DNA of 64,000 nt from an uncultured bacterium (GCA_963696395.1 CAVOJZ010000002.1:431317-495316), one strand, 5' to 3'. Numbered from the stretch's first letter, positions 35,752 through 53,207 are shown. The notes: generated by a model from the sequence alone, not told the origin. Numbers and translations are program-made.

Positions 35752-35753
35752 AT

Positions 35754-38368: not shown

Positions 38369-38514
38369 GGTGAAATATTTTTCTGTTGGGTTAATTATTT
38401 ATCAAGCGTACATCTCTTGTCAAAGTATCGCCATGTTGCGTTCTGGGGATTTCGTGTGCATAAGACATTCTAGAGCACTTGCGGGAGATTTGCGAGAGTG
38501 ATAGAGTCATAGGC

Positions 38515-39672: not shown

Positions 39673-39689
39673 AAAAGTTTGGTCAGTAG

Positions 39690-40178
39690 TTGATTTTTTT
39701 AACGAAATATGAAATAGTACCAGGAATCATGGACTGGGAAATTTTCATTAAAAAAACATTCGACTTGCTTGGGTTTAAGGATTATCGCCTTGATGTGAAG
39801 TTGGAAGAAAAACGCGCTTCACTTTTCATTTACGAAGATCAGAATCTTGTGCGTGAGAACTTGCCGCTGATTGTGGAAGGGATAAACCATCTCATCCAGA
39901 TGGTTGCAAAGAAGCACGAAACTGAAACCATCTTCCTCGACGTCAACAATTATCGTCAGGAGCGGGAAAATCTTATCGCTGAACTTGCCCGAGCCGCAGC
40001 GAAAAAAGCGCTCGCAACAAAAGAGGCAATTTCATTGCCAGCGATGAATTCCTACGAACGGCGTCTCGTACACGTTGAACTCGCCATTCATCCCGAAGTG
40101 CGGACCGAGAGTGCCGGCGAAGGCAAAGAACGATATGTCATTATCAAACCGATAACAGAAGAAAAGAAAGAGGCATAA
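39690..40178 (+). CDS. jag: Jag/KhpB-like KH-R3H RNA-binding protein
   Basis: R3H motif (SYERRLVHVELAIHPEV). Confidence 0.7.
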   Translation: MIFLTKYEIVPGIMDWEIFIKKTFDLLGFKDYRLDVKLEEKRASLFIYEDQNLVRENLPLIVEGINHLIQMVAKKHETETIFLDVNNYRQERENLIAELARAAAKKALATKEAISLPAMNSYERRLVHVELAIHPEVRTESAGEGKERYVIIKPITEEKKEA

Positions 40179-40179
40179 A

Positions 40180-40207
40180 AAACCGGGCATCACTGCCCGG
40201 TTTTTTA
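40180..40207. terminator. bidirectional rho-independent terminator
   Basis: AAAAACCGGGCATCACTGCCCGGTTTTTT. Confidence 0.6.
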
Positions 40208-41461
40208 TTGCTGCAAGGTGAGTGCGTAGAGCTTGTTCGTGTACCGGTCGATAAAGAATATTTCGTTACCTAATGTTTTGAGATCGGACACGTCAACGTT
40301 TTGATTCGGATCGCTCCACAACGTTTCAATGTTTCCGGTTTGGGTATTGATGCGATAGATATTGTCCGACGTGAAGAGCGCCATCTGATTGTAGTCATCT
40401 GGAAGATGTGCGGCTGCAAACGAAGCTGCGTCGCGCGGGATGCCGCAATAGAGGGCGAGATAATTGCTCGAGCTTGTTGCGTTGGCGACGGTTGTCGTTG
40501 CAGTTGCGAAGCCGCACTTTGTCGGCAGCGTGCTGATGGCTAAATCCTGGAGAACATTTCCGGAGGTGTCTATGAGAGCTAGGGTATTTGCTCCTCCGGT
40601 ACTCAGCGCGTATGAGAGGAGGCCTTCCGGTGTCGCGATTTGCGAGGTTGGGCTCCAGACGCTTTCAATTCCGGCGACTGGACCGGCAAGCAACGTAAAA
40701 CTTTGCTTAGAAGCATCAAACATGATTGCAGAACCGACGGCTTCCGAGCTCGGCCTATCCGATAAGACAAACTGGCTCTTGCCAATCCACTGGAGCGAAA
40801 GATCCTGGACATACAGAGATGTGATTTCTAAGGGAGTTTTTTTAACATTTGAAGTGTCGATCGTGGCGAGGCCTTCTTTGCCGGTTGCGACATTCGCAAG
40901 GTATGCGATGCGGTAATCCGAGGGCGACCAGGTTGGGGACAGCATCCCTTGTGGCAACGCCATCCATGTGGCGGAGGCAACATTGAAGACGCTGGTTTGT
41001 GGGTTATTCGGATCACCAAAAGAGAGAAGAGCTTTCTTCCCATCAAAAGAGAAAGATCCGGCAATAACATTGCTGGCGGTTGACGAGCTGATATAAGATG
41101 TCTGCCCGTTTGCGATCGTCGCAACAACACCATTCGGCTCAAGAATAAGGATTGTATTATTTGGTTCTACGAAATAGTTTAAAACCGGATCGTTCGATAG
41201 TGGGCCAAAGCTGCCGGCAACAATCTGTGAGCTCGTAGGGCTGGTCTGACTCTCTGTGCTGGTTGCGCCTGCTCCCCCTTCGCCAGAGTTTATGCCGGTC
41301 GTGCCTTGAGTTCCCGTGGACGGCAGAGAACCGGTGGTGCCGGTTCCGGTTGTTGCAGTACCAGGAAGATTAAACGAGCCGCTTTTCCAAAGGTAGAGTC
41401 CGAAAACAATTGCCGCCGCGATGATGACGAGAGCGATTAAAATGTATATATAGCGTTTCAT
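40205..41461 (-). CDS. secreted protein with N-terminal TM/signal and Thr/Gly-rich linker (possible beta-propeller), T4SS-cluster associated
   Basis: N-terminus MKRYIYILIALVIIAAAIVFGLYLW, then low complexity (TGTGTTGS), then about 330 aa of beta-rich sequence. Overlaps the upstream gene by 4 nt. Confidence 0.5.
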   Translation of the reverse strand: MKRYIYILIALVIIAAAIVFGLYLWKSGSFNLPGTATTGTGTTGSLPSTGTQGTTGINSGEGGAGATSTESQTSPTSSQIVAGSFGPLSNDPVLNYFVEPNNTILILEPNGVVATIANGQTSYISSSTASNVIAGSFSFDGKKALLSFGDPNNPQTSVFNVASATWMALPQGMLSPTWSPSDYRIAYLANVATGKEGLATIDTSNVKKTPLEITSLYVQDLSLQWIGKSQFVLSDRPSSEAVGSAIMFDASKQSFTLLAGPVAGIESVWSPTSQIATPEGLLSYALSTGGANTLALIDTSGNVLQDLAISTLPTKCGFATATTTVANATSSSNYLALYCGIPRDAASFAAAHLPDDYNQMALFTSDNIYRINTQTGNIETLWSDPNQNVDVSDLKTLGNEIFFIDRYTNKLYALTLQQ

Positions 41462-41883
41462 TGGCCTGTTTTTTGGAGGGGTGGCAGCGCTGGCAAATCC
41501 AAATGGGTTAGATTTGGGTTTACAGTATTTAATATAAGATATGCGCCTACGAGCAAGAGTAGCCCGAGGAGGGCGCTCTCGATCCAGGCTTTGGCCTCGC
41601 TTTGCGAAGACGGATTTCCTGCGGCAGTCACATATCTTACGCCGCCATAAACGACAGCTCCGAACGCCAGGAGGCCACCGATCATAAGGGCAAACTGGTA
41701 AAAGCTGTTAATGTAGTTGCCAGGATTGCATCCCTGCGATGACGGATTGGAGCAAGGGCTGCTTCCGCCGTTCACGGCGGGCAAAGATAATGAAATTGAG
41801 GTGGCGTGAGCAAGCGAGACAAGGGAAATGCCAAACGCGAGAAAAAGCAACACCAAAGTTTTTTTCATAGACCAGTTTATCAT
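41458..41883 (-). CDS. VirB2/TrbC-like pilin candidate
   Basis: 141 aa with a signal peptide and two hydrophobic helices (FYQFALMIGGLLAFGAVVYGG / ALLGLLLLVGAYLIL) separated by a short polar loop. Confidence 0.45.
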   Translation of the reverse strand: MINWSMKKTLVLLFLAFGISLVSLAHATSISLSLPAVNGGSSPCSNPSSQGCNPGNYINSFYQFALMIGGLLAFGAVVYGGVRYVTAAGNPSSQSEAKAWIESALLGLLLLVGAYLILNTVNPNLTHLDLPALPPLQKTGQ

Positions 41884-42584
41884 AACGTCGGTTGATAAGT
41901 GAGGTTCGCCGAAGCTGTTGCCTGCGTTGAATCGTTGGAATTTTGGACGGTGACCGAAGCAATAAAGGATGTTCCCGCTGCAGTTCCCTGCGGGAGCGTG
42001 ATCTGAGCCACGTTTGGGTTTTCAGTATTTGAGCCCGATTGATTATTAACCGTCCACGCATAAGAAAGATTTGAAGGAGAGGCGGTATTAAAAAAGTAAG
42101 GGATTGCGGTGACGGTAACAGGGTTGGAAGAAAATTGTCCGGCCGGGTAGGGAGCATCGACAACAACTTGCGGTTGTACCATCGGGATGTCGATTGTGCG
42201 CAGAAGGAAGCCGCTGGGATAAAACGGCAGCTCAACCTCGAGCGTTGTCACGTTCGGAGGTTGACCAAGCGGAGGGAATGAAATGCTTTGCACTCCAACG
42301 CCACCTCCCAAAAGTGTGTCTGTATTATTTAAATACCAATAGATGGTCTGACCGGAAAGATCGACTAATTTTCCATCAGAGATGATTTCGAGCGAGGCCG
42401 TAATCGTTGATCCATAGGTTGGGAGCGCTTTCCCGGGATATGAAGAAGGGATATAGCTTCCAGACGTCTTCCACGTGATTAAAACTTGAGGCGTGGCTGC
42501 GAAGGCAAAATGTGCGCTCAATAAAAGAGAGAGAGCCATTGACGCACCAAGGCCACTGAGCGCGATTTTAATGGGTCGAATCAT
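41880..42584 (-). CDS. secreted hypothetical protein (signal peptide)
   Basis: N-terminus MIRPIKIALSGLGASMALSLLLSAHFAFA with a cleavage-like AFA|A site. Confidence 0.5.
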   Translation of the reverse strand: MIRPIKIALSGLGASMALSLLLSAHFAFAATPQVLITWKTSGSYIPSSYPGKALPTYGSTITASLEIISDGKLVDLSGQTIYWYLNNTDTLLGGGVGVQSISFPPLGQPPNVTTLEVELPFYPSGFLLRTIDIPMVQPQVVVDAPYPAGQFSSNPVTVTAIPYFFNTASPSNLSYAWTVNNQSGSNTENPNVAQITLPQGTAAGTSFIASVTVQNSNDSTQATASANLTYQPTL

Positions 42585-42628
42585 ATCCTTCTTTCTTTAA
42601 TTGTAGCAAATGGAGGATGGGGGTGAGC

Positions 42629-43450
42629 TTAAGCAGCCTCTTCCTCGGGTTCTTCTCCGCCCTCTTCTTGTTGTTTGCGCGGTTGGTCTCGTTCGTCAAG
42701 ATGATTTATGATGTCGCGAACTTGTTTAACACGGTGATTTTCGGACCCTCTTTCTGTTTCTCCTTCTTCCTCTCCCGCTTCTTCTGTCTCGCCGCCCATT
42801 TCTTCGGGGGTTTCTTCGAATGTCTTCTCTTCGAGTAACTTCATGGGTTCTTCTTCTGTCTCGCCGCCAAGCTCTTTTTCGATCTCTTCTTCGTGCGCCA
42901 TTTCTTCGGGCGATTTTGCTGCTCCTTCGGCAGCTTCGGTAGTTGTCTCTCCGGCCTGGCCGGCCCCCCCAGCCATTTCTTGAGCCGCCACTCCCGAGCC
43001 CTCGGCTCCTTCGGCGAGAGCTCCAGCCGCTTCGGTGGCCGTCGCTGCTGCCTCCGCGCCGACTTCGGCAACCTCGGCTCCTTCGAGCGCTTCCCCGGCT
43101 CCCGCCGTAGCGAGGGCAACGCCTTGGATAATAGCCTGCTTTGCGAAGAAGGCGACAAATTTATTTGACAACAACACCCCAAGAACAACTCCAACGGTAA
43201 GAAGGGGCAGGGGGATTAGTATTGCGAGGATTACCGCCAGCTTTGCCAGCCAGCCTTGGGCCTTAGGGAGGAAGAACGCTCCCATTAGGATGCCGGCGAA
43301 ATAATGAGCAAACAGAATGCCGGCCAAAAAAGCGAGCCCGATTCCCGGAATTAACACTCCGATACAGAAAACAAAAGCGAAATCACCGAGAACTGCGGCG
43401 AGGAAACCGGCGATGACGCCAATGTCAGTGATGTCAAAGCCCTCCTTCAT
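42629..43450 (-). CDS. 4-TM membrane protein with long acidic Ala/Glu-rich C-terminal tail
   Basis: Hydrophobic N-terminal 120 aa, then the low-complexity acidic region EAAEGAAK...EEGGEEPEEEAA. Confidence 0.5.
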   Translation of the reverse strand: MKEGFDITDIGVIAGFLAAVLGDFAFVFCIGVLIPGIGLAFLAGILFAHYFAGILMGAFFLPKAQGWLAKLAVILAILIPLPLLTVGVVLGVLLSNKFVAFFAKQAIIQGVALATAGAGEALEGAEVAEVGAEAAATATEAAGALAEGAEGSGVAAQEMAGGAGQAGETTTEAAEGAAKSPEEMAHEEEIEKELGGETEEEPMKLLEEKTFEETPEEMGGETEEAGEEEGETERGSENHRVKQVRDIINHLDERDQPRKQQEEGGEEPEEEAA

Positions 43451-43458
43451 TGAAAAGA

Positions 43459-45198
43459 TTATGCATGCTCTTTCTCGTCGAGCAGTTGTTCGGGGTTCGT
43501 CGTAATAATCTGGTCTTCAAAATAGGAAGGCACAATCTGGATCGCAACGTGCCGTTTGCCGGCGAAGAAAATACCGGTTCCGATTTCCGCCCCCAGGAGA
43601 AAACTCTTTTCCGCTTCGGTGAGATCAAATGCTTTTGCAACAATATCAATGGTCGCCGGCGCCTGTTTCAAGAGAAGTTGAATCGAAGAGTTTGTTATGA
43701 TCGGGCGGCCATACGGCGAGCGCAGAAAGTCTTCAACATCCTGGGTGATCGTTGAGACTCCAAGATAATATTTGCGGGCGCGCTTCACGAGGCCAAAAAG
43801 GAATGTTGCACTATCTTCGTTTTTCATCATGATCCACGCCTCATCAATAAAGAGAAGCCTCTTCGCAAGCTTCGCCCGAATTAAGCTCCAGATGAAGTTC
43901 AAAACAACGAACATTCCAATCGGGCGCAATTCCTCTTCAAGGTCTCGGATTGAAAAAACAATGAGGCGGTTCGCGACGTCAATATTTGTCGGCTGGTTGA
44001 GGAATCCTGCGAAACTGCCCTTGGTATATTTATAGAGCTTTTCCGCGAGGTCGCGGCCACCTTCAAGGTTTCGTAAAACGGTTTCGAGATCCCCTAAAAG
44101 CGGAGGCTCTTTGCCGGTGAAATCCGCATCTTCCGTCGCCACAATGTCGCGCGATGCATATGTCTCGGTGATTGCCCGGTCGAGAAGAGCGTCTTCCTCC
44201 GGCGTGATCTTGCCGAGCATCAGTTTCAAGAGGCTCGCGAGCGTCACGATGTGCGATCGCAAAACATCGGACGGCGATTCGTCGTCGGGAACCAACGGCA
44301 CATCGAACGGATTGATATGTTCATGCGACGAAAGCGAGATGTTGAACATGCTGCCGCCAAAAGTTTTTGCGAGGCGTTCGTATTCGTTTTCCGGGTCAAT
44401 CACGAGCACCATATCAATGCCGGCCATGAGAGATCGGATGATTTCCAGCTTTGTTGTATATGATTTTCCGGATCCGGATTTTGCGAAGACAACCTGGTTG
44501 GCGTTTTCCAGGGAGAAGCGGTCAAAAATAACGAGATTGTTGTTGTGCAGGTTTATACCGTACATAATCCCCTCGTTCGAGGAAAGATCTTCCGAAACAA
44601 ACGGAAAAAATGACGAGATGGGCCCTGTGTTCATCGGTGTGTAAACCTGCAGCTTGTCGGAATCAACCGGCAAGATTGAGAATAGGCCCTCGAGCTGTTC
44701 AAAGAGAGCCGGTTTCAGATAGATCAACTTTGCCTCCATCATGCTCACAAGCTTGCTCTCGAGTTTGGCAAGCTCATCTTCGGTGTCGGCGTAGATCGTA
44801 ATGTAAACGCCGGTATCAAATAATTTTTCTTCCGACTGCTGGAGCGAATCGCGAAGATTTTCAACATCCTGCACGGCCGTTTCGAGCATCGGATTGCGGA
44901 CGAGTCCCTTTTCCTGTTCGTCTGCGATTTGCGATTCGAGCTGGCCGGCTTTCTTGCGCAAGTTTTTCAGGGCGACACCCGTGTCGATCGGGTTCACATA
45001 GATTGCAATGTCGAAAAGATTGGGGAGATTGATCAGCGGCTCAAACCAGCCCGTGGAAAGATAGCGCGGATAGGAAAAAACAAAAAATGTTTTCGCGAGC
45101 TTATCGCCGATTTTAAGGTAGTTTGGGAAAACCTGCGCGCCTGCGGGAGCGATAATTTTTTTAATATCTTTGAAATCTTGAGGGGAAGTATCCGGCAT
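43459..45198 (-). CDS. virB4: VirB4/TrbE-family type IV secretion ATPase, C-terminal ATPase portion
   Basis: Walker A VVFAKSGSGKSY, Walker B LLFIDEAWIMM and conserved C-terminal motifs. Confidence 0.75.
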   Translation of the reverse strand: MPDTSPQDFKDIKKIIAPAGAQVFPNYLKIGDKLAKTFFVFSYPRYLSTGWFEPLINLPNLFDIAIYVNPIDTGVALKNLRKKAGQLESQIADEQEKGLVRNPMLETAVQDVENLRDSLQQSEEKLFDTGVYITIYADTEDELAKLESKLVSMMEAKLIYLKPALFEQLEGLFSILPVDSDKLQVYTPMNTGPISSFFPFVSEDLSSNEGIMYGINLHNNNLVIFDRFSLENANQVVFAKSGSGKSYTTKLEIIRSLMAGIDMVLVIDPENEYERLAKTFGGSMFNISLSSHEHINPFDVPLVPDDESPSDVLRSHIVTLASLLKLMLGKITPEEDALLDRAITETYASRDIVATEDADFTGKEPPLLGDLETVLRNLEGGRDLAEKLYKYTKGSFAGFLNQPTNIDVANRLIVFSIRDLEEELRPIGMFVVLNFIWSLIRAKLAKRLLFIDEAWIMMKNEDSATFLFGLVKRARKYYLGVSTITQDVEDFLRSPYGRPIITNSSIQLLLKQAPATIDIVAKAFDLTEAEKSFLLGAEIGTGIFFAGKRHVAIQIVPSYFEDQIITTNPEQLLDEKEHA

Positions 45199-45199
45199 A

Positions 45200-45892
45200 T
45201 TATGTGCTTATAGCGGCGTTGGTTCCGCGTTCGACGGTTTGTGGATTGTAGAAATTATAGAATAGCTCGACGAGCTCCTGATTCCCAAGAATGGTTGTTT
45301 CAAGGCCGATGCCCAGGAGCCCTGCGACAACCTGATTTACCCGTTGCGTAATCTGGCTGACGTTTTCAGCAAATGTTTTACTGAGCGTCTCTTGTGACTT
45401 TGCCGCCTCTTCGGCGTTTGGTTTTTTCTTGTTGCCAAAAAAAGGAAGAGCGCTTAACAACCCCTTCCCTGATGTGGGCAGGGCTGAGCCTAATGGATAG
45501 AATGGCACAACCACCAGGAACGTCTTTTCCATGATGGCGTTTTTTGCCACAAAGCCTTTCACAAACTCGGCATATTCATCGATCTGATTCTGCAAAATGG
45601 GCGACGCTTCAATGTCTTTGCGCTTGATAAGCCCCTCTATATATTTGTCGATGTTAACCTTCCTTGAGTGGATGAGAATTTGGAGGGGGAACTCAACGGT
45701 ATTAAGGAATGTTTGGTACGCCTGCGTAAGGATGGTTTGTTCAACTTCGGATTTCAGGGCAAAATTGACGCCGCCGACCATAACGATCTGACGTAAACTG
45801 CCATCTTTTAGGATCACGATGCTGTCGCGGATTTCCTTAATGTCTACCAGGTCGAGCGAATTGCCAAAATCTTGTTTTGAAGGGAGCGCCAT
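45200..45892 (-). CDS. VirB4 N-terminal domain as a separate reading frame
   Basis: VDIKEIRDSIVILKDGSLRQIVMVGGVNFALKSEVEQ resembles the CagE/TrbE/VirB4 N-domain. Its stop lies 1 nt from the ATG of the ATPase ORF (TAAtATG) in a different frame. Confidence 0.55.
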   Translation of the reverse strand: MALPSKQDFGNSLDLVDIKEIRDSIVILKDGSLRQIVMVGGVNFALKSEVEQTILTQAYQTFLNTVEFPLQILIHSRKVNIDKYIEGLIKRKDIEASPILQNQIDEYAEFVKGFVAKNAIMEKTFLVVVPFYPLGSALPTSGKGLLSALPFFGNKKKPNAEEAAKSQETLSKTFAENVSQITQRVNQVVAGLLGIGLETTILGNQELVELFYNFYNPQTVERGTNAAIST

Positions 45893-45908
45893 GCCATTAT
45901 TTTACCAT

Positions 45909-46427
45909 TTATCGGTAATCAACGCGCCGCGCGGCACTCCGATCGCCCGATAGTTTCCGGAAAATTTGATATCGCTCATTCATTTTCCGTTCGATGAACT
46001 GCCGATCGGACGTTTTCGGAGACTCGCCCGTTTGCACGTTCTGCCAGGTTTTGTGGAGCGATGTTCCCGCCGCCAGTTTTTCAATAAGCGAAGGCGGAAG
46101 TTCAGCTTCTTTTTCCTGTTGGCGAATCGGTGTCCGCGCAACGGGTGCATGTTCCGGTTGCCAGATATAGGTTTGCGGTTTCCAATAGAAGCCCGCGGCG
46201 GCGATGATGATATTAATCAAAGGCCTTCCCTCAATGTGAATAAATGATAAGGCAAGAGCTCCGCCAATAAAGATGATGGCTATTATTACAAAGAGCCACG
46301 TTGCAACCATAAAGTAGAAAATAGCACTCACAAGGCAGGCGGCACCAACGTAAGCGAATTGCCTGATTGAAAATGGGCCAACCACCTTATCTTCCGTTTC
46401 AATGAATTGTGGAACCTGGAACTGCAT
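45909..46427 (-). CDS. PrgI/VirB3-like small membrane protein
   Basis: FSIRQFAYVGAACLV plus two TM helices. Positioned immediately upstream of virB4, which is the conserved virB3-virB4 order. Confidence 0.45.
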   Translation of the reverse strand: MQFQVPQFIETEDKVVGPFSIRQFAYVGAACLVSAIFYFMVATWLFVIIAIIFIGGALALSFIHIEGRPLINIIIAAAGFYWKPQTYIWQPEHAPVARTPIRQQEKEAELPPSLIEKLAAGTSLHKTWQNVQTGESPKTSDRQFIERKMNERYQIFRKLSGDRSAARRVDYR

Positions 46428-46458
46428 ATATGCATTATAAATTATCCCCAGCGTTGTG

Positions 46459-47742
46459 CTAGGGATAATTCACTTTGACCACTTTTGGTTGAGGCGGCGG
46501 AGGAGACGGTTTCTGCGGCTGAGGTGAGGAAGGCATTGCGGTTGTCGGTGTTCGAGGTGCTGAAGGCGGCATCGGTGGTTTCGGAACCGGAGTTGATGCA
46601 ACCGGTGTTTGGCTTGGCACTACAATAGGCTTCGCTATATTTGGCGGAGGAAGCGGACTTGATGACCTCGCTATTACTGGTGTTGTCGCGATCGGAGCCA
46701 CAGGAGCTGGTTTTGCGGTCGGGACGGAAAGTGGCGATAAAGCGGGAGAGCTGCTAACACTCGGCGTGGCGATCGGCGTGGGCTTCGGAGAAGCCCCGGT
46801 GACTTCAGTAACGTGCCTGTCAATCGGTTGCGTTGAAATTTGAAATTGCGTGTAGTGAGTGAATTTTGGAGCGCTCGAATCGGATTGCGTAGGTGCGTTT
46901 GTGAGTGAGCCAAGTTCGAGAACTGCCGGCTTCACTGCCTGCTGGGATTTAACCCCGTCAAGTGAAACCTGCGCATCTCCTCCCGGTTTCGAGAGGTGAA
47001 AATCGGTGGTCTTGTCGCTGGATGTGAATTTTGCATCTTCATGGAGAATAACTGGTGCCGGTCCTGTTGGGGGCGTTCCAATTTTTGCCTGCGTGGGTTG
47101 TCCTGGCGTCGCTACCGGCCCCGTTGTTTTTGACCAACCCGCCTGCGTCAAAGGTGAAGCAGCAAATTTACCCTCTGAGGGAGCCGGGATCCTTGTCGTT
47201 GAACCTGGGATCGAAGACAAAACAGCAGAAATCGGTTTTTGCGACGCTGGCGCAGCGATCGGAAAAGACGTTGGAGTTACGGGTTTTGGAGCGACGGAAT
47301 TCAGAGGTTTAAGTGATGCCTGGGCTGAGCCGCCTGAAACCATATCGAAAACCATACTTGGGGAAGGTCCGCTCGCTGCGATGTCCTGGATTTTTTTCGG
47401 CAAAGTTTCGAACTTGCTAAGAGGGCTATAAATTTTGTCGAGGTCAGCCTGTAGCGGAGTGAAAATTCTCTTCTTAAGCGCGTCCTGGATGTCGGACGCT
47501 GTTTTGCGATCGAGGGTCAATCCTTCGACTATCTCAAGAGCTACATCTTCGGGATGAAGGAACCCCATCATCACGTAGCCGGCGATTTTTGCAATTGCAT
47601 AGATTTTTTCGCTCGGAACGTGCTCCCCTTCGCACGTTCTCCACAGGAAATCGGAATTTGTTTCAGAATACAAAGCCTCTCGCAAGCTCATCGGCAACAA
47701 ATCCCAGCGATCTAATGTTTGGTTTGTCGTGACGGTAATCAT
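46459..47742 (-). CDS. protein with about 120-aa folded N-domain and about 300-aa Pro/Ser/Thr/Ala-rich disordered tail
   Basis: Extreme low complexity (PKPTPIATPSVSS...PPPPQPK). No TM helix. Confidence 0.5.
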   Translation of the reverse strand: MITVTTNQTLDRWDLLPMSLREALYSETNSDFLWRTCEGEHVPSEKIYAIAKIAGYVMMGFLHPEDVALEIVEGLTLDRKTASDIQDALKKRIFTPLQADLDKIYSPLSKFETLPKKIQDIAASGPSPSMVFDMVSGGSAQASLKPLNSVAPKPVTPTSFPIAAPASQKPISAVLSSIPGSTTRIPAPSEGKFAASPLTQAGWSKTTGPVATPGQPTQAKIGTPPTGPAPVILHEDAKFTSSDKTTDFHLSKPGGDAQVSLDGVKSQQAVKPAVLELGSLTNAPTQSDSSAPKFTHYTQFQISTQPIDRHVTEVTGASPKPTPIATPSVSSSPALSPLSVPTAKPAPVAPIATTPVIARSSSPLPPPNIAKPIVVPSQTPVASTPVPKPPMPPSAPRTPTTAMPSSPQPQKPSPPPPQPKVVKVNYP

Positions 47743-50129
47743 GATTTAGGTGCGGTGGCTGAAGCGGCGCCGGGACTCCCACCGTCACCGAATGTTGCAT
47801 TATAGGCAAGCGATTTTTTAATGGAATCCATGGCGAGCTCAAGATTTTTTTCTTCGACAGTCATCTTTTTCTTCAGTTCTTCGCGCTGCTTCTGGATGTC
47901 CTTGATCGTTGATTCCATCTTGCCCCTCGAAATCGTGAGTGTTTTCTTTGCGGCCTCCGTGGTGGCTTCATTGATTTGTTGTGTGAGCTTGCTTAAGCCC
48001 TCTTCCTGGTCCTTTATGTCTGCTTCCATTTTTGCATCCTCTTTAAAGTAGGTGCGCTTGTCCATCTCCCCTCTGATTTGCTTAATATAAATGTCCGTAA
48101 ATTTTGGCAGAGTCGTCCTGTCCATCTTGCTTAATTGACCCGACGCAAACTGGGGAGCTTGCAATGCCCAATTCTTTGCCAGGGCTCTTGCGATAGGCGT
48201 ATCCTCTTTGAACGCTTCGTTGCCATTCACTTTATTGGCATCTGCTTTATCCCAGCCTTTCGTAAACTTCGCGGTTTCGTCGTCCAGTTCTTTTTCCGCC
48301 ATTTCCTTTTCAGCATCCGATCGTGCCCCCTTAACCTTCGCTTGGGCCGCTCTCATTGGTTTGTTGCTGCCGAGTTGCTTATTAACATCTCCCAAGAGCT
48401 TGCCTTGACCATAATTCGTGAAGAGGCTTTCGTTCTTGTCCAGCCAGGTTGCGAAATCTTGACCCTGTACCTTGTCAATTTTATCGAGCTTGCCTCGCTT
48501 TTGGAGCTCTTGGATATAGGCGAGTTGTTTGTCTGCGCCCAAAATCTTACCCGTACCCATCAGTTGATCTCGCAGCTCTTCGTCTGAGCGATCGCCCATC
48601 TTGAGGTCGGTTGACGCTTTTTTAACCAGATCTGCGCCGCCTTTCTTTGTGAGATCTCCCATCGATCTGCCAAGAGAAGAAACTCCTGGGATCCTGCTGC
48701 GTTGAAGGGCTCTATTGATGGCATCTCCTCCTCCGTACGGGAGGCTTTGGTAGGCTCGTCGGGCGACCCTCTTCGAATGCTTCCCTGCGAATCCTCCCAC
48801 CTGCCCACCAACCCACTTCGCTCCGTGCATAATTGCGTCCGATCCGGTGAGGGAAAGCGAATTTGCCGCATAAATACCACCAAGACAAAGCCCAACCATC
48901 ACAATTTCCTGGAGAGCCATCGGGAGAAAGCCTACATGGCCCGTTTGGAGAGCAGCTGCCAACATCGGATCGTTCGGATTGTTCGTAAGAGACGTCGGGA
49001 GCGCCGCAATCGTAACATTCACTTGGCCGCCAACTACACTCACCGACAAAATCGCCAGATAGAGGAAAAAGAGCGACAGCGCGGGGAACATTGTCCACTT
49101 AAGGAATAGCCCCCACCATTTTGCGAGATAATCAAACTTCGGGAATATCCAAGTGAGCCATGCAAGAGGAAGTATAATAAGCAGGATTGATAGGTAGACA
49201 TAACGGATTATCATTAATAGTCCGATCAGAATAAGAGTGAAGGCCGTTATGCCTATAAAGATTGCAGAAAAGAGTCCCGACATTACCGCCCTTACGAAAT
49301 CGGAGGCTCCAGTTTGGTCTGAGTTTGTAAAAAGCGTCGATAGATGAACGCAGAGATAATTGTTTAAAGATTGGAACCACGTTCCGGCAGTTTGTTGCGC
49401 GCAGGAACTTTGCGCGACGGGTCCAGCACTCGTAAGATCTGGTGGTGTCCTAAAAGCAGCCGGTAAAAATGCAGTGGTTATGGTTGTAGTGAAGTTCGCC
49501 GCACCGCCACTTGCATTCAAAAAATAGCCGGTAAGATTATCTGCCAACCCAACGATAGGCCCGGTAATTACAAGACCAAAATTTACAAGGATCGCCATCG
49601 CGATCAACTTCCAAAGCATTTGTTTGATGCCGTAAGTTTCGTTGCGAAGAATGGTTGCGATCGCTATGACTATTATCCCCAAAACAAAGCCAAGGTTTGC
49701 CAACGAAAGAGAAATCGAAAATCCTGCCTGAACTGTTTGTGAACTAAAAACGGCACCGCTTAAATTAAGGCCTTCAAGAATAATAATCCCCCCAAGAGAG
49801 ACAAGGAGAGAAAGTGCGTCGTTTATTAAGGTGCTTATAAGAGCAACAGCCGATGTGCCGGGGCTACTTGCCCAATCGTACCAAGCTGGAATTTGATTTG
49901 TGACGCCCGCACTCTGGGATCCGCCAGTCGTTCCTGGGGTTGTCGGTGCCGATGGAGACACCGGAAGCGGTGAGACTGGAGCCAGTGGCGGGAGCGGCTC
50001 TATCGGCGCGACTTGTGCATGAACTAATACCGCACCAAAAAGCAAAGAACAGCTTACGAGAGCAAGGATTCCTGCTAGATATTTTTTATAGCTGGTCGTT
50101 TTCATTATTGTTGGACGGTAACACTGCAT
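47739..50129 (-). CDS. VirB6/TrbL-like polytopic membrane protein with about 330-aa charged coiled-coil C-terminal extension
   Basis: Signal peptide, Pro-rich linker, then at least 6 TM helices with large loops, then a K/E/D-rich heptad-like tail. Confidence 0.55.
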   Translation of the reverse strand: MQCYRPTIMKTTSYKKYLAGILALVSCSLLFGAVLVHAQVAPIEPLPPLAPVSPLPVSPSAPTTPGTTGGSQSAGVTNQIPAWYDWASSPGTSAVALISTLINDALSLLVSLGGIIILEGLNLSGAVFSSQTVQAGFSISLSLANLGFVLGIIVIAIATILRNETYGIKQMLWKLIAMAILVNFGLVITGPIVGLADNLTGYFLNASGGAANFTTTITTAFLPAAFRTPPDLTSAGPVAQSSCAQQTAGTWFQSLNNYLCVHLSTLFTNSDQTGASDFVRAVMSGLFSAIFIGITAFTLILIGLLMIIRYVYLSILLIILPLAWLTWIFPKFDYLAKWWGLFLKWTMFPALSLFFLYLAILSVSVVGGQVNVTIAALPTSLTNNPNDPMLAAALQTGHVGFLPMALQEIVMVGLCLGGIYAANSLSLTGSDAIMHGAKWVGGQVGGFAGKHSKRVARRAYQSLPYGGGDAINRALQRSRIPGVSSLGRSMGDLTKKGGADLVKKASTDLKMGDRSDEELRDQLMGTGKILGADKQLAYIQELQKRGKLDKIDKVQGQDFATWLDKNESLFTNYGQGKLLGDVNKQLGSNKPMRAAQAKVKGARSDAEKEMAEKELDDETAKFTKGWDKADANKVNGNEAFKEDTPIARALAKNWALQAPQFASGQLSKMDRTTLPKFTDIYIKQIRGEMDKRTYFKEDAKMEADIKDQEEGLSKLTQQINEATTEAAKKTLTISRGKMESTIKDIQKQREELKKKMTVEEKNLELAMDSIKKSLAYNATFGDGGSPGAASATAPKS

Positions 50130-52267
50130 GTTACCGGGGTGTCACTGGCAGTGTCGCTCAATGTGACTGTGTAAGTCCCAGGGTTAAACACGTGAGAAAA
50201 AGTCGAGCCCGTGCTCGAGGCACCGTCTGATGAAGCCCAGTTGTAGGTTGGATAATTACCACTTGAATCGAATGTACCGCCAGCCGCACCGATGGTTGCA
50301 GGAGGAGTGCTCGAACCAATTACGTTAACAGTTTGCTGGGTGGGAATGCACGAAAGTGGCATTTGCGCAGGTGGAGTCCCTCCGCCCTGAATGGAAGTTG
50401 GATTTATGCTTAACATGCCGTTCACTGCGTTACCCGCTGCGCTTACCGCGGCGTTTTCGAGCCCGGTGAGAAGCGATCCCGTTACGGCATTCAGGAGACC
50501 AACAATAGCGTTTGCAGCTGCAAGTTGTTGCGTCGTCCCTTCGGCAGAGCTTTGTTCCGAATTTATAGTGAAAATACCCGGGGTTGTTCCGTTTGGCTCG
50601 GCACCATTTGCACAAGTGCCGTTATTTGCTTCGGCTTCCGGTGCCCCAAGATTGTTGGCAGGGCAAGGACTGTTCGAAGTGTAATCCTTGCCGCTCGGGT
50701 CGGTGCAATAATAACTGATGCCATTTGGGTTGCTCCCATCGGCGCAGACCTGATCGCCCTTGCCGCCTTGCGAAGCAATACTTTTGGCTTGCACTGCTTG
50801 TTGGGCGTTGCGGGCGTTAAGCCCCACAGCAATCGAACCAAAATAAAGCGAATCATAGTAATTGTTTGTGGGCGCTGAACCTGCCCCGAACGCGAGCCAG
50901 CCTCCCTGCGAAAAATTATTATAAAACTGCTGAAGCGTGTGCCCACTCAAAGCCGCTTGAAATGTATTCGCGCAACTATTGTTGCCGTTTGAATAAGGGA
51001 GCTTTAGCATGACGCTGATTTGTGGTAAAAGCCCCGGATAGCCACACGCAAGAGGACCGTACTGACTATTGATATAGGTTATAGCCCTTTGGGTATATGC
51101 GGTCACGAGCTGGGTGCTCCAGTTCGTGATAAATCGCGGGGCGCCACTACCCTGGATCCACACGAGAACTTTCCGTTGGACGAGGGCAATCAGGACGTTT
51201 TTGAGGATTTGGAGCAGTGTATTTTTAATAGCATCTTCCAATTGCTGTTCGATGTTTTGAAGTTGGTTTGTCGAGATTAATGTCCACGTCGCGGGATCAA
51301 AGACTTGCCATTGAGCATGAGCCGTTGGTATGCCGAGAATGTTATCAACAATTGCAAGCAATCCATTTTGCGAGTCATCCTTCCCTTGGAGAGAGACGGC
51401 GTTATTTGCTATCGCTTGACTATCTTCCTGGAGCTTTTGTTCCGCCAATTGAAATTTTGAGTCTTCAGTCTGGAAAATAAGAGAGGCTTTCACCGGATCG
51501 GTCTGCGCAAGTGTTAGCAATTGGAAAAAGTTTTTATCATATACAAATATCTTCACCATGTCTTTTTGAAAGGGAACAAGTTGGCTTGGGGTTTGAAGTG
51601 CGAGCGTGTCGCCGAGCGTCTGTTGCATTTGAGATTGTATATATGCGAGGTCGCTCGTGTCAGCATCGCCGGAATTATTTAATATGCTCTTGACTCGGTC
51701 ATCGATGTGAGCACTCAGGACGCCTTCCAGTGCTTTCCCATAAGACTCAACTGCCGCCGGATTTGAAGCGGCGGCAATACGCACTGGTTGCGATGCAGCT
51801 TCAATATCCCAGTCTGGAATTTGGAGTTCTTGTGTTGCACTTGAATTTGCCACAACATTTACGATTCCGGTTACGTCGGGTTGTGTGAGGACGGGGTCTC
51901 CGTTTGTGTCATATGTTGGACCATTTGGATTCGTTCCAATAACTCCGCCAAGATATGAATCGGCTAAGGCGTCAGTCAGGTTGCTTGAATCTGACAAAGG
52001 AGCGGACGTGGTAGCTAGAATGGCCGCTGCGTTCGCCGCCGCCGTTTCAATCGCCGCAGAAACTTGATTATTCGATTGGACTACAAAGGCGTTATTTTGA
52101 ACCGGGTTTGAAGACGTCGGAGTATCAGAAATTGTAGCTTGAACTTGCGCTTGTTCGCTTCCGGTCGCCTGCACGGAGTTCCCTACGGTCGAGACAATAA
52201 GAGCCGAAGCGCCAAGTGCGATAGCCAAAATCAGAAAACCGGTGATCAATTTCTTGACATCGATCAT
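50105..52267 (-). CDS. large secreted protein with C-terminal PKD-like domain
   Basis: Signal peptide, multiple Cys pairs in residues about 400-560, and C-terminal FSHVFNPGTYTVTLSDTASDTPVTCSVTV matching the PKD pattern. Confidence 0.55.
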   Translation of the reverse strand: MIDVKKLITGFLILAIALGASALIVSTVGNSVQATGSEQAQVQATISDTPTSSNPVQNNAFVVQSNNQVSAAIETAAANAAAILATTSAPLSDSSNLTDALADSYLGGVIGTNPNGPTYDTNGDPVLTQPDVTGIVNVVANSSATQELQIPDWDIEAASQPVRIAAASNPAAVESYGKALEGVLSAHIDDRVKSILNNSGDADTSDLAYIQSQMQQTLGDTLALQTPSQLVPFQKDMVKIFVYDKNFFQLLTLAQTDPVKASLIFQTEDSKFQLAEQKLQEDSQAIANNAVSLQGKDDSQNGLLAIVDNILGIPTAHAQWQVFDPATWTLISTNQLQNIEQQLEDAIKNTLLQILKNVLIALVQRKVLVWIQGSGAPRFITNWSTQLVTAYTQRAITYINSQYGPLACGYPGLLPQISVMLKLPYSNGNNSCANTFQAALSGHTLQQFYNNFSQGGWLAFGAGSAPTNNYYDSLYFGSIAVGLNARNAQQAVQAKSIASQGGKGDQVCADGSNPNGISYYCTDPSGKDYTSNSPCPANNLGAPEAEANNGTCANGAEPNGTTPGIFTINSEQSSAEGTTQQLAAANAIVGLLNAVTGSLLTGLENAAVSAAGNAVNGMLSINPTSIQGGGTPPAQMPLSCIPTQQTVNVIGSSTPPATIGAAGGTFDSSGNYPTYNWASSDGASSTGSTFSHVFNPGTYTVTLSDTASDTPVTCSVTVQQ

Positions 52268-52368
52268 TTACCTTTATTATAGCTCGCTGATTCTACAATA
52301 TATATCGTGGTTATCCCCACGGAAGGCGCATAATGAAGCGATAAACAGGGGCGCCAGGAGCTTCCTCC

Positions 52369-53166
52369 TTAAAAAAACATGCGGGCGAGACTCGAGATGT
52401 CGCGAATGGTCAAATCCTGAGGACGAGAACCGGGGTTGATGCTAAGTTTTGTGAGCTCCGCCTCAGTTTCCTGTTTAGAAAGTTTTTTCTGCGTCCCGGC
52501 GTAAATATTATTTAAAATCGTCTTCCTTGGTTGTGCAAAAATTGACCGAACGGCGTCGTAATAGCGGCTCGGTTCAACTTCTTCCTGTGCAGTCTTTGCC
52601 TCGAGGAGCACGACGGCGGAATCGACTTCGGGTATCGGAGAAAAATCTTCTTTTGGAACGTGCATAACAATTTTTGCCACCGCCCAAAACTGGACGCTTG
52701 CCGCAAGGCGATTCATGTCGGGTGGTTTGGCGCACATGCGAACCGCAACCTCGCTTTGAACCATAATCACGGAACGGGCGGGTTTATTTTCGAGATCGCT
52801 TATCACTCGCAATAATTTTCCGGTTATGTAATACGGAATATTGCCGGCAAGTTTCCATGGAGTCCCTGCTGCAAGGTTTTCACGAACGAGATCAGGTAAG
52901 GCGGTTAGTGCATCCCCTTCTATTATGTCTACGCCTTGCTGTCCTGTGTCTTTTTTTGCAAATAAGGCATGCAGCGGATGGGCGAGATTCAAGTCTTTTT
53001 CGATCGCCACTATTTTACGGACCGTCTTCGCCGCGATTGCGGTAGTAAGCTCTCCGTGACCCGGTCCGATTTCAATCACAAAATCATCCGCACGAAGATC
53101 GAGGGAGTCAATGATTTTTTTAAGCGCTGACTTGTTTTTAAGAAAGTGCTGGCCGAGACGGGGCAT
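52369..53166 (-). CDS. rsmA: 16S rRNA (adenine1518/1519-N6)-dimethyltransferase
   Basis: MPRLGQHFL... with SAM motif VIEIGPGHGELT. Confidence 0.85.
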   Translation of the reverse strand: MPRLGQHFLKNKSALKKIIDSLDLRADDFVIEIGPGHGELTTAIAAKTVRKIVAIEKDLNLAHPLHALFAKKDTGQQGVDIIEGDALTALPDLVRENLAAGTPWKLAGNIPYYITGKLLRVISDLENKPARSVIMVQSEVAVRMCAKPPDMNRLAASVQFWAVAKIVMHVPKEDFSPIPEVDSAVVLLEAKTAQEEVEPSRYYDAVRSIFAQPRKTILNNIYAGTQKKLSKQETEAELTKLSINPGSRPQDLTIRDISSLARMFF

Positions 53167-53207
53167 AAATTTGGATATTGTGATACTTACCTTAGCACAT
53201 TGTCCTA

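Follow-up and report, generated by a model that had tools for sequence, protein, structure and literature searches.

The window analysed here, a 64,000-nucleotide stretch of a ~914-kb genome, contains ten close-packed genes (g1-g10) that very probably represent a chromosomal type IV secretion system (T4SS) or pilus cluster of the Patescibacteria clade, serving host interaction. The machine is neither newly acquired nor new in kind. It was described in 2023-2025, and it most likely acts where cell and host meet, as a pilus or conduit driven by VirB4. The T4SS of Patescibacteria, its relaxase-less state and its neighbourhood of dnaA, dnaN, rnpA, ksgA and rpmH in Paceibacteria have already been published (PMC12102498). 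Three points are absent from the papers searched: a TrbJ/VirB5 motif in g1, a conserved head-on orientation and a conserved set of accessory proteins.

Gene arrangement and source

The genes run from position 52267 down to 40205 on the minus strand. Translation of the window recovers all ten co-directional open reading frames (ORFs) of the original prediction, and they are listed here with the two elements that border them.

50105-52267, minus strand: g1, 720 aa, proposed VirB5-like protein
47739-50129, minus strand: g2, 796 aa as called (likelier start 50105), predicted VirB6/TrbL-like protein
46459-47742, minus strand: g3, 427 aa, Pro-rich protein
45909-46427, minus strand: g4, 172 aa, predicted PrgI/VirB3-family protein
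45200-45892, minus strand: g5, 230 aa, predicted TrsD-like protein
43459-45198, minus strand: g6, 579 aa, predicted VirB4 ATPase C-part
42629-43450, minus strand: g7, 273 aa, acidic-tailed membrane protein
41880-42584, minus strand: g8, 234 aa, Ig-like exported protein
41458-41883, minus strand: g9, 141 aa, predicted VirB2-type pilin
40205-41461, minus strand: g10, 418 aa, TolB-like propeller protein
40175-40208, no strand assigned: bidirectional intrinsic-terminator hairpin, 15-bp stem with A/T runs on both flanks
52268-52368, minus strand: rsmA-g1 spacer, 101 nt, with a hairpin at 52306-52321

The junctions between these genes are either overlaps (1, 4, 4 and 4 nt) or gaps of 1-44 nt. Overlaps of 1-25 nt had been predicted, and the one of 25 nt is likelier to measure 1 nt. 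The start of g2 is probably at 50105, which yields a 788-aa product, because a database copy of the protein (P0121) has 788 aa and the family consensus begins MxKxxYKK. The terminator hairpin is common to g10 and the convergent jag gene, and marks the 3′ end of the operon. At the other end, a TATAAT box is located in the spacer 8 nt 5′ of the g1 ATG, and this spacer is possibly an internal promoter of the operon.

Judged by its protein homologues, the source is a Paceibacteria (CPR/Patescibacteria) genome. The nearest VirB4 homologues are found exclusively in Paceibacterota/Minisyncoccia, and all named close homologues, together with all 80 genome loci, belong to Patescibacteria.

Assignment of the components

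The VirB4 ATPase is split over two ORFs, as had been proposed. The larger, g6, finds its best curated VirB4 model in CD1110, an MPF_FATA family (NF045971 conju_CD1110, 394.8 bits with the cutoff at 325, over model positions 185-734 of 752), and it also matches Pfam P-loop_TraG (90.3 bits). Walker A (AKSGSGKS, read off the translation) and Walker B (LLFIDE) are both intact. On these features, g6 is assigned as the C-part of VirB4, the motor of the system. The top 120 homologues share 81-98% identity with it and measure ~578 aa. The other ORF, g5, matches NCBIfam TrsD (E 3.1e-8) as well as the N-terminal positions of the VirB4_plasma and VirB4_CagE models, which identifies it by profile as a TrsD-like protein, the VirB4 N-terminal domain as its own cistron. 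The two are joined by the sequence TAA-T-ATG. A TrsD-like ORF is separate from VirB4 in 74 of the 76 related loci, and fused in the remaining two (L029 and L055).

A PrgI/VirB3-like gene had been placed immediately upstream of the VirB4 ORFs, and g4 fits this description, with a Pfam PrgI score (33.9 bits, cutoff 27) that assigns it to this family of membrane proteins. The PrgI/VirB3 gene is present in 75 loci and is always found directly upstream of TrsD.

The g2 protein comprises a signal or transmembrane (TM) segment, a linker rich in Pro, six or more TM helices and, at residues ~480-780, a folded C-terminal domain of helices. There is no match to Pfam TrbL (PF04610) on g2 itself; the homologue P0199 passes with 33.9 bits and is the sole homologue to do so. 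PF19590, presumably another TrbL-like family, is precomputed on 11 of the 120 g2 homologues listed. The predicted structure of g2 superposes on TrwI/VirB6 as a polytopic membrane fold. This model, together with the TrbL match of P0199, identifies g2 as an extended VirB6/TrbL-like polytopic membrane protein, in agreement with the prediction of such a protein with at least 6 TM helices.

The predicted two-helix VirB2/TrbC-like pilin candidate is g9. It matches Pfam T4SS_pilin (36.4 bits, cutoff 26.6) and, below the cutoff of 40, the NCBIfam Mbov_0395 pilin-like family (24.9 bits). It carries a signal peptide (ending SLAHA/T), a Cys-x8-Cys loop and two hydrophobic helices, and by family match and topology it is a VirB2-type T4SS pilin.

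The g1 gene is located directly upstream of the virB6-like g2. Its protein consists of an N-terminal membrane anchor or signal (residues 4-26), a helical module (residues ~140-290), a motif region (residues 308-345), a Cys-rich region and a PKD domain (residues ~640-720). The last is the PKD-like domain foreseen for one exported protein, and its PKD_4 score of 27.9 bits lies just above the cutoff of 27. The motif region includes GIPTAHA/QWQVFDPATW, which corresponds to the signal-peptide/mature N-terminus motif of TrbJ/VirB5/DUF4141 (A-x-A/Q-W-x-V-x-D-P). An unfused homologue (L064) has a genuine N-terminal signal peptide. In addition, trbJ adjoins trbL in the plasmid gene order trbE-trbJ-trbL, as g1 adjoins g2. 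Family cutoffs are not reached: DUF4141 reaches 16.6 bits with g1 and 22-29 bits with its homologues (cutoff 30), TrbJ reaches 22.2 bits (cutoff 225), and the alignments span only 24-37 columns. From the motif and the gene position, we propose that g1 may be a VirB5-like pilus-tip or adhesin protein.

The remaining products include the conserved accessory set of the cluster, namely a TolB-like propeller, an Ig-like protein and a small TM protein. The propeller is in g10, which has an N-terminal TM anchor, a Thr/Gly/Ser-rich linker and a TolB-like beta-propeller predicted to face outward. A profile of 32 g10 orthologues matches TolB chains in the PDB (E 9.7e-10), g10 matches NCBIfam TolB (E 6.9e-4), and assorted propeller families also appear among the matches. 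The g8 product, an exported protein with a signal peptide, is rich in beta structure and contains an Ig-like (BiPBP_C-like) domain; 12 of its 28 orthologues match Pfam BiPBP_C (best E 3.9e-7), and a sequence-profile search of the PDB with g8 gave no match. In g7, a small polytopic membrane domain (3-4 TM, residues 1-105) is followed by an Ala/Glu-rich tail with a net charge of -37, and it is thus the acidic-tailed membrane protein that was anticipated. Its slot is taken by a TM protein in nearly all of the 60 loci tested; in 30 of them the ORF has two or more TM-like segments, and acidic residues make up 15% or more of its C-half. In the distant loci L050-L067 the slot is occupied by a TM protein of ~115-165 aa alone. 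Finally, g3 corresponds to the predicted Pro-rich disordered protein (15.7% Pro). A domain of ~120 aa at its N-terminus leads into a long disordered stretch rich in Pro, Ser and Thr. The protein has neither a TM segment nor a signal peptide, and its position is conserved, with syntenic homologues in 43 loci.

Origin neighbourhood and conservation

The cluster is located between the following genes.

35754-36866, minus strand: dnaN, origin-region gene
37010-38368, minus strand: dnaA, origin-region gene
38515-38649, plus strand: rpmH, origin-region gene
within 35754-40178, plus strand: rnpA, yidC and jag, origin-region genes
52369-53166, minus strand: rsmA/ksgA (Pfam RrnaAD)
53208-55133, minus strand: uvrD/pcrA-type helicase (Pfam UvrD-helicase)
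55172-56251, plus strand: hydrolase with LysM (x2) and peptidase M23 domains (Peptidase_M23 94.2 bits, LysM 83 bits)

The predicted origin context is real, and the block lies beside dnaN-dnaA and rpmH-rnpA-yidC-jag. The cumulative G-C curve reaches its minimum at 39,625, inside a flat valley (29,972-40,456), and the G-C skew around 38.4 kb is -0.029 to the left and +0.045 to the right. The coding strand of the T4SS shows lagging-strand skew, and no cluster of DnaA boxes is found near dnaA. The gene order and this weak skew are consistent with transcription of the block head-on to replication, also as predicted. The conserved upstream neighbours rsmA and uvrD (52369-55133) are co-directional with the T4SS, and form with it a joint head-on block of ~15 kb.

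Of 51 related genomes, with VirB4 proteins 57-93% identical, 49 share the order uvrD-rsmA-T4SS/jag-yidC-rnpA/dnaA-dnaN and its orientation. In 42 of the 49 loci, rsmA is upstream on the same strand, and throughout the sampled Paceibacteria the T4SS keeps its head-on orientation. Because this arrangement is so widely kept, the block is ancient and vertically inherited rather than recently acquired, and its head-on placement beside oriC was fixed in the lineage long ago. Any acquisition is older than the split of the sampled Paceibacteria lineages. The head-on position had been read as a sign of acquisition, and this reading fails on the synteny just described, on a GC content similar to that of the flanks, on the lagging-strand skew and on the flanks of the block, where no att-like or direct repeats, integrase or relaxase were found. 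Published VirB4 phylogeny follows taxonomic class, and transfer is rare (PMC12102498). VirB4 equals DnaA in conservation, with a mean identity in 25 close genomes of 88% versus 78%, and the fast-diverging exposed parts have values of 35% (g1), 38% (g2) and 42% (g10).

There is no relaxase, coupling protein (T4CP) or VirB11 among the 10 largest ORFs (at least 409 aa) outside the block in the 64-kb window. Pfam and NCBIfam likewise give no relaxase or T4CP match on ORFs of the block or its neighbours, and no match to the VirB7/VirB9/VirB10 core or VirB11 on any ORF of the block. Thus, the claims that VirD4, relaxase, VirB11 and VirB9/10 are missing, and that a cluster with neither relaxase nor coupling protein in the window is not a canonical conjugation module, are sustained. 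The claimed lack of VirB1 needs qualifying, given the LysM-M23 hydrolase gene 3 kb upstream, which is syntenic in several loci. VirB1-like proteins bearing M23/LysM domains are known near virB4 in Paceibacteria (PMC12102498). This hydrolase is possibly a functional analogue of VirB1, and its membership in the system is inferred.

Related systems and possible functions

The closest likeness is to the Patescibacteria-clade T4SS of Quinonero-Coronel et al. 2025 (PMC12102498), which shares an MPF_FATA-related VirB4 with a separate adjacent TrsD, nearby genes for PrgI/VirB3, VirB6 and a VirB2-like pilin, the lack of a nearby relaxase, and a chromosomal site near dnaA/dnaN/rnpA/ksgA/rpmH. In contrast to this system, which includes S. 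epibionticum SEML1_0006-0019, there is a single pilin gene here rather than an array. That survey mentions neither a VirB5/TrbJ-like protein nor accessory proteins of the propeller and Ig-like kinds, nor how the genes are oriented with respect to replication. Together with the profile matches and the Paceibacteria source, the parallels with this clade bear out the earlier suggestion of a resemblance to Gram-positive cores and to the sets of small-genome episymbionts.

Among Gram-positive MPF_FATA cores, CD1110 (C. difficile CTn2) is the best VirB4 family, the separate TrsD-like N-domain recalls pGO1 (pGO1/pSK41 TrsC-TrsD-TrsE), and the VirB3 is of the PrgI type of pCF10 (PrgH-PrgI-PrgJ); a VirB7/9/10 outer-membrane core is lacking in these and here. 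Those cores carry a relaxase, T4CP, VirB1 hydrolase and VirB8-like proteins and are without VirB2 pilin or VirB5, whereas this locus has a pilin and a TrbJ-like motif protein, no DNA-processing parts and a fixed chromosomal site. The VirB2-type pilin is shared with diderm P-type/MPF_T systems (TrbC-TrbE-TrbJ-TrbL; VirB2-VirB4-VirB5-VirB6), which differ in that VirB7/8/9/10/11 and an outer membrane are absent here. The g1 motif has the AHAQWxVxDP mature N-terminus of TrbJ/DUF4141, but g1 is three times longer than TrbJ, its motif is internal (residue ~316), and it has an added N-terminal module and PKD domain. The g2 model resembles TrwI of the R388 TrwJ/TrwI stalk and bears an extra helical domain of ~300 residues. 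Mollicutes integrative and conjugative elements (ICEs) provide the second-best VirB4 model for g6, Mbov_0397 (298.9 bits, under the curated cutoff of 590), in addition to the weak sub-cutoff pilin match of g9. Their hosts are also wall-poor or small-genome monoderms, but the Mollicutes genes are found on mobile ICEs with DNA-processing genes.

The archaeal Ced system (CedA/A1/A2/CedB) and H. pylori ComB each pair a VirB4-type ATPase with a VirB6-like protein and a VirB2-like pilin and have no coupling protein (PMC11665869; PMC12102498), a set also seen at this locus. The inability of the organisms concerned to make nucleotides is counted as another likeness to these DNA-import relatives. The match of g6 to CedB is weak and partial (E 3.7e-9), far under the CedB cutoff (35.7 versus 700 bits).

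We envisage a monoderm-type, MPF_FATA-related machine with VirB4 made as two polypeptides, g5 and g6. By analogy with VirB3, g4 would tether VirB4 to the membrane beside the g2 channel or platform. Homology suggests that this core most likely polymerises the g9 pilin into a pilus or tube, which g1 may cap. The g10 propeller, the g8 protein and possibly the LysM-M23 hydrolase could help in crossing the wall or anchoring in it, and the apparatus would act at contact with the host cell. Both the pilus model with a VirB5-type tip and the direction of transport are less certain than the identity of the locus.

One possibility is that macromolecules of the host, nucleic acids foremost, are taken up without a T4CP. 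We favour this view tentatively, at somewhat under even chances, and rank it ahead of effector export and adhesion because the locus lacks both a coupling protein and a relaxase and resembles the VirB2, VirB6 and VirB4 import sets. Perhaps, instead, the system is a contact-dependent translocator that delivers CPR proteins to the inside or the surface of the host cell and so manipulates or lyses it, a reading which we consider unlikely, at roughly one chance in four. Most non-conjugative T4SSs are effector translocators, protein export has been raised as an option by the authors working on Saccharibacteria (PMC10633639; PMC11665869), and infected hosts exhibit cytoplasmic shrinkage (bioRxiv 10.64898/2026.06.21.733656). 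However, the locus is without a coupling protein for substrate recruitment, and the operon has no candidate effector, chaperone or immunity genes, its products all being membrane proteins, exported structural-type proteins or ATPases. Moreover, known T4CP-less exporters depend on a periplasmic intermediate. Such an export route would probably be a poor fit to a monoderm envelope.

Slightly less probable still is an organelle for adhesion or motility only, wherein a VirB2 pilus with a PKD tip attaches to the host and nothing passes. The exposed parts, which evolve faster than all other components, have domains typical of adhesins (PKD, Ig-like, beta-propeller), and detection of the g1 PKD domain is limited to the closest lineages (9 loci versus 38 for the core), as expected of a host-specific adhesin. 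Yet type IV pili already serve adhesion in CPR, and a PilB-type ATPase for them is also encoded in the window. That an extremely conserved VirB4 and a complete VirB6 platform, whose cytoplasmic domain is large, have been retained suggests more than pilus assembly, although both are also needed for pilus biogenesis. By far the least probable reading is a horizontally acquired mating-pair-formation module, or its remnant, from a conjugative element integrated by the origin. It draws on the VirB4 scores, which are highest against ICE and plasmid ATPase models (CD1110, Mycoplasma ICE VirB4), on the resemblance of g9 to the Mycoplasma ICE pilin-like family, on a head-on orientation unusual for core genes and on the relaxases present in a minority of Patescibacteria genomes (PMC12102498). 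It is opposed by the window, with no relaxase or T4CP among the ORFs scanned and no adjoining integrase or flanking direct repeats, by the flank-like GC and the identical site between rsmA and jag in the 49 genomes, and by a VirB4 that is conserved like a housekeeping gene and whose phylogeny tracks class.

A role of the pilus or conduit at the host interface is in keeping with published observations. S. epibionticum, a Saccharibacterium, cannot grow as an epibiont without its T4SS and pilins, and no coupling or relaxase protein is recognizable in its T4SS locus either (Wang et al. 2023, PMC10633639); essentiality has been demonstrated in Saccharimonadia only. A t4cp homologue elsewhere in the S. 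epibionticum genome is not essential (PMC12102498), and the competence gene comEC is dispensable (PMC12857230). Tubular structures, possibly T4SS pili, are seen at one parasite-host interface (bioRxiv 10.64898/2026.06.21.733656). Among the unknown genes of Paceibacterales MAGs, some of the most strongly expressed are T4SS pilin genes and a gene for a PKD-domain protein (PMC10936435).

Gene complement of the origin-proximal secretion system

A large part of bacterial diversity belongs to the Patescibacteria, which live on other cells. A published survey of their type IV secretion systems (T4SSs) detected VirB4 in 2,417 of 3,035 genomes, and most of these proteins form a single clade within the monoderm class MPF_FATA (Quinonero-Coronel et al. 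2025, PMC12102498). In that survey TrsD, PrgI/VirB3, VirB6 and VirB2-like pilins are found near virB4, relaxases are almost always absent, and the T4SS neighbours in Paceibacteria are dnaA, dnaN, rnpA, ksgA and rpmH. In the one species tested, a Saccharibacterium, the T4SS and its pilins proved essential to epibiotic growth, and coupling and relaxase proteins were noted as lacking (Wang et al. 2023, PMC10633639), and the function of the Patescibacteria T4SS has been described as 'completely unknown' (PMC11665869). The locus examined here is very probably this published system, which reduces the novelty that the original prediction gave to it. The remaining interest rests on the function of the class, on a candidate VirB5-like tip and on a conserved head-on operon at the origin. 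The window provides a clean and complete Paceibacteria example in which each gene has a structural role or a testable guess, and the T4SS operon at the origin is apparently important.

Ten minus-strand ORFs running from 52267 down to 40205 had been predicted, and all of them were found at these coordinates (g1 to g10, in order of transcription). A database copy (P0121), an independent gene call and the family consensus MxKxxYKK all favour a 788-aa start for g2; with this start, four junctions are overlaps (1, 4, 4 and 4 nt) and five are gaps (1, 8, 16, 31 and 44 nt). The block is bordered by the following features.

40175-40208: strong terminator hairpin with a 15-bp stem and A/T runs on both sides, common to the 3' end of the block and the convergent jag gene
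Left of the block: jag, yidC, rnpA and rpmH (plus strand), then dnaA and dnaN (minus strand)
Between rsmA and g1: spacer of 101 nt containing a hairpin and a TATAAT box
Upstream of the block, same strand: rsmA and a uvrD/pcrA-type helicase gene
3 kb upstream of the block, opposite strand: LysM-LysM-M23 hydrolase gene

The order jag-yidC-rnpA-rpmH followed by dnaA-dnaN is a classical origin neighbourhood. The TATAAT box (52268-52290, minus strand) ends 8 nt before the g1 start codon, and a g1 transcript starting from it, if it is used, would be nearly leaderless. The hairpin, CGTGGGGATAACCACG, is located just upstream of this box, after rsmA.

The classification of the block as T4SS-like was right. 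Family models recover VirB4, PrgI/VirB3 and pilin. The 579-aa g6 protein matches the NCBIfam CD1110-family VirB4-like conjugal ATPase (394.8 bits, cutoff 325) across positions 185-734 of the 752-position model, and Pfam P-loop_TraG with 90.3 bits. Its Walker A (AKSGSGKS, read in translation) and Walker B (LLFIDE) motifs are intact. The g4 protein matches Pfam PrgI (33.9 bits, cutoff 27), and g9 matches Pfam T4SS_pilin (36.4 bits, cutoff 26.6) and has the topology of a signal peptide, a Cys loop and two hydrophobic helices. The pilin ORF ranges from 117 to 529 aa over all loci examined; it is 141 aa in the window and 468-529 aa in L056, L058, L059, L061 and L065, which belong with L063 to a more distant sub-group of related loci where the order of the pilin and propeller genes is reversed.

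The 230-aa g5 protein resembles TrsD/TraD (E 3.1e-8), and three VirB4 models match it through their N-terminal positions; g5 and g6 are a single VirB4 divided over two cistrons, with the junction TAA-T-ATG. In 74 of 76 related loci the N-domain has an ORF to itself, and lengths among the best 120 g6 homologues run from 567 to 596 aa. These 74 loci, and C-part homologues listed at about 578 aa, rule out a frameshift or sequencing error behind the split. A TrsD-like N-domain fused to the VirB4 ATPase occurs only at L029:9077-11698 (873 aa) and L055:790-3138 (782 aa), and represents either a natural re-fusion or the ancestral state.

The g2 protein is an 'extended' VirB6, with a signal/TM segment, a Pro-rich linker, at least 6 TM helices and a helical C-terminal domain of about 300 residues that is predicted by modelling to be confidently folded. 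PDB sequence-profile searches returned nothing meaningful for g2 or for g8. The latter has a signal peptide, and 12 of its 28 orthologues match the Ig-like BiPBP_C family (best E 3.9e-7). In g10 an N-terminal TM anchor and a Thr/Gly/Ser-rich linker precede a TolB-like domain, and the orthologue profile matches TolB beta-propellers in the PDB (E 9.7e-10). The g3 protein combines a small N-terminal domain with a Pro-rich disordered region and lacks both TM segment and signal peptide. A small protein with 3-4 TM segments and an acidic Ala/Glu tail is encoded by g7. Nearly all of the 60 loci tested hold a TM protein in this slot, and in 30 of them the ORF has at least 2 TM-like segments and a C-terminal half that is at least 15% acidic; the more distant loci L050-L067 hold only a TM protein of about 115-165 aa. 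No VirB8-like protein was recognised. The LysM-LysM-M23 hydrolase is syntenic in several relatives, and M23- or LysM-bearing VirB1-like proteins are reported near virB4 in Paceibacteria (PMC12102498), which makes it a candidate wall-opening enzyme.

Inheritance and head-on orientation

Identity to g6 is 81-98% among its best 120 homologues, of which the named ones come from Candidatus Paceibacterota or Minisyncoccia. A total of 80 genome loci were recovered, all from Patescibacteria MAGs or closed chromosomes of about 0.8-0.9 Mb, and were compared with the window proteins by tblastn. The dnaA count was limited to the 51 loci whose sequence extends at least 8.5 kb past virB4 on its downstream side; 49 of them carry dnaA on the T4SS strand 2.2-7.4 kb beyond virB4, always with jag and yidC on the opposite strand in between. 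Similarly, rsmA precedes the block on the same strand in 42 of the 49 loci with enough upstream sequence. The syntenic loci cover VirB4 identities from 93% down to 57%. The only exceptions to origin synteny are L004 and L062; in L004 an insert of about 5 kb (approximately 15.6-20.9 kb) separates jag from yidC, and dnaA falls outside the 10-kb flank.

The GC content of the block (0.49-0.51) equals that of its flanks, no integrase or relaxase flanks it, and a search around it for direct repeats turned up no att-like sites, just short and imperfect matches attributable to chance. Thus, the argument that a head-on block must have been acquired is not supported. Because position and orientation are kept in 49 of 51 loci, composition resembles the flanks and mobile flanks are lacking, the block was already present, at this site and head-on, in the ancestor of the sampled Paceibacteria lineages. 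Recent acquisition is ruled out by synteny, composition and skew.

Average identity between the window and its 25 closest genomes
VirB4 C-part (g6): 88%
DnaA (comparison): 78%
TrsD (g5): 64%
PrgI (g4): 55%
Pilin (g9): 54%
g8: 50%
g10: 42%
g3: 39%
g2: 38%
g1: 35%

By these values the VirB4 motor is under housekeeping-grade constraint and the exposed parts change fast, as would be expected if they meet a variable partner surface.

The head-on orientation that had been proposed is consistent with gene order and with bulk GC skew, which was taken because skew at four-fold sites is too noisy gene by gene. Bulk skew is -0.029 left of 38.4 kb and +0.045 right of it, and the cumulative G-C curve is lowest at 39,625, in a flat valley that extends from about 30 to 40.5 kb. 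Left of the origin, 25 of 31 larger genes are on the minus strand and therefore co-directional with a leftward fork, whereas the T4SS block, rsmA and uvrD present some 15 kb of genes against a rightward fork. Plus-strand skew across the T4SS block is +0.057, which gives it a C-rich coding strand, the opposite of the left-hand genes and as predicted from long residence on the lagging strand. In the window, 23 DnaA-box-like sites were observed when 9.5 would be expected by chance. The search revealed no cluster of boxes at dnaA, with just three 1-mismatch sites nearby, and thus oriC is not pinpointed. Four box-like sites cluster at 62989-63883, downstream of tyrS and about 25 kb away from dnaA, including a perfect TTATCCACA at 63056.

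Origin proximity has been treated solely as a gene-dosage effect, with strand and orientation not mentioned (PMC12102498). For slow-growing organisms with reduced genomes, such a conserved head-on site beside the origin is a natural setting in which to study conflict between replication and transcription.

A candidate VirB5/TrbJ-like protein

The 720-aa g1 protein has a weak Pfam DUF4141 match at residues 307-326. In each of nine homologues tested, the corresponding region scores 22-29 bits against DUF4141, for which the cutoff is 30 (E-values from 6e-7 to 8e-5), and one homologue matches the NCBIfam TrbJ model (E 5.9e-5). A PDB sequence-profile search with this motif region returned nothing meaningful. 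The TrbJ link was tested by tblastn of a 90-residue segment from a g1 homologue (P0352) against 7.3 Gb of annotated plasmid DNA, and by hhalign. There are 23 matching places on plasmids: 15 in trbJ, 3 in DUF4141 genes, 3 in 'type IV secretion system protein' genes, and 2 with no feature or a hypothetical protein. Their E-values are individually weak and the set is nearly exclusive to trbJ, DUF4141 and T4SS genes. Profile-profile alignment gives probabilities of 75-93% (E 2.4e-5 to 2.8e-7) across 24-37 columns. The common element is the end of a signal peptide and the mature N-terminus.

TrbJ of pPNAP01: ...LMPVAHAQWVVIDPSNLAQN
Bradyrhizobium TrbJ: AKAQWIVFDPNNYAQN
Prevotella DUF4141 protein: AHAQWVVTDPGNFAGN
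Window g1: GIPTAHAQWQVFDPATW
g1 homologue P0352: AHAQWIVFDPTTFAQM

The plasmid matches sit between virB4 (trbE or traG) and virB6 (trbL), which is the VirB5 slot beside virB6, and g1 similarly comes immediately before the VirB6-like g2. The g1 motif occupies an internal position near residue 316, and its A-x-A is invariant over 53 homologues. A distant homologue of 566 aa (L064:2784-4484) begins with a normal signal peptide, MRHFIISFLIAGIVTAGLFVPRAPASALA followed by VPVFDPA, and its alignment to g1 continues past this point to include the conserved helix and GSGAPRF. The simplest reading of these sequences is that g1 originated as a TrbJ/VirB5-like secreted protein that was joined to the end of a membrane-anchored helical module some 300 residues long. 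The middle region of g1 was detected in 38 loci, the N-module in 26 and the C-terminal PKD domain in only 9, which suggests exchangeable outer domains.

It is possible, although we would sooner expect otherwise, that g1 is an unrecognised VirB5/TrbJ homologue, with its original signal peptide and cleavage site internalised by fusion behind a membrane-anchored module and with exchangeable C-terminal adhesin domains, and that the head-on placement at oriC is functional. If so, a monoderm system would possess the complete VirB2-VirB5-VirB6 pilus-nucleation module, hitherto known only in diderm T4SSs. A confirmed VirB5-like tip would support a true conjugative-type pilus in monoderm cells and would mark the protein likeliest to touch the host. 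A functional fixed placement at oriC might, for example, couple expression to replication or permit faster change in surface parts.

Transport and neighbouring features

The gene set comprises a VirB4 motor, a VirB3 anchor, a VirB6 platform and a VirB2 pilin. In the R388 stalk model, VirB4 hexamers dock on VirB3 and VirB6, and VirB6 passes pilin from the membrane into the growing pilus with VirB5 at its tip (reviewed in PMC12857230). By analogy with established T4SS biology, g5/g6, g4, g2, g9 and g1 would build a pilus or tube, and g10, g8 and possibly the M23 hydrolase would function in the wall. In Paceibacterales MAGs, T4SS pilin genes and a gene for a PKD-domain protein rank among the unknown genes with the highest expression (PMC10936435), and tubular structures, maybe T4SS pili, bridge parasite and host (bioRxiv 10.64898/2026.06.21.733656).

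Reviews suggest that the T4SS may deliver effectors or take up host molecules. We tentatively favour T4CP-independent uptake of host macromolecules, at somewhat less than an even chance, because the locus is without a coupling protein, because a t4cp homologue is dispensable in S. epibionticum while the T4SS is essential (PMC12102498), and because the gene set resembles import systems composed of VirB2, VirB6 and VirB4. This likeness is to Ced and ComB, and the parallel draws partly on general knowledge and partly on PMC12102498 and PMC11665869. Effector export, the other option in the reviews, seems rather doubtful, and a role in adhesion only is judged unlikely. The original prediction that coupling and DNA-processing proteins do not accompany this T4SS was borne out within the 64 kb, for the ORFs of the block and its neighbours and the 10 largest ORFs elsewhere (409 aa or longer), and conjugation is highly improbable.

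Several other features of the window deserve mention. A ComM/Mg-chelatase-type ATPase gene (56269-57801, minus strand) and the UvrD/PcrA helicase gene (53208-55133, minus strand) flank the block; both products act on DNA, and their positions are kept in many relatives. ComM is linked to natural transformation. A low-GC stretch between comM and nusA (57.8-59.1 kb, GC 0.40) contains two small ordinary genes and no Rfam family above threshold. One is a 110-aa ORF (57887-58219, minus strand) with two Cys pairs (CEKCGEE...FC) that resembles a DksA/TraR-type zinc finger by eye, and the other is a 129-aa ORF (58559-58948, plus strand) with a YraN-like look. A PilB-type T2SSE ATPase (29550-31235, minus strand; 402.9 bits) indicates type IV pilus genes about 9 kb left of the origin, and thus both surface-filament systems are in the origin region. 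The Rfam LOOT RNA family (RF03000) is matched over its full length at 1766-1879 on the minus strand (86.1 bits, gathering score 46.4), just downstream of a 264-aa ORF. A large serine recombinase of 528 aa with Resolvase and Zn_ribbon_recom domains is encoded at 2775-4361 on the plus strand, and its 3' end overlaps the tmRNA gene (4291-4601, minus strand) by about 70 nt on opposite strands. Since tmRNA genes are frequent integration sites, an integrated element may be present.
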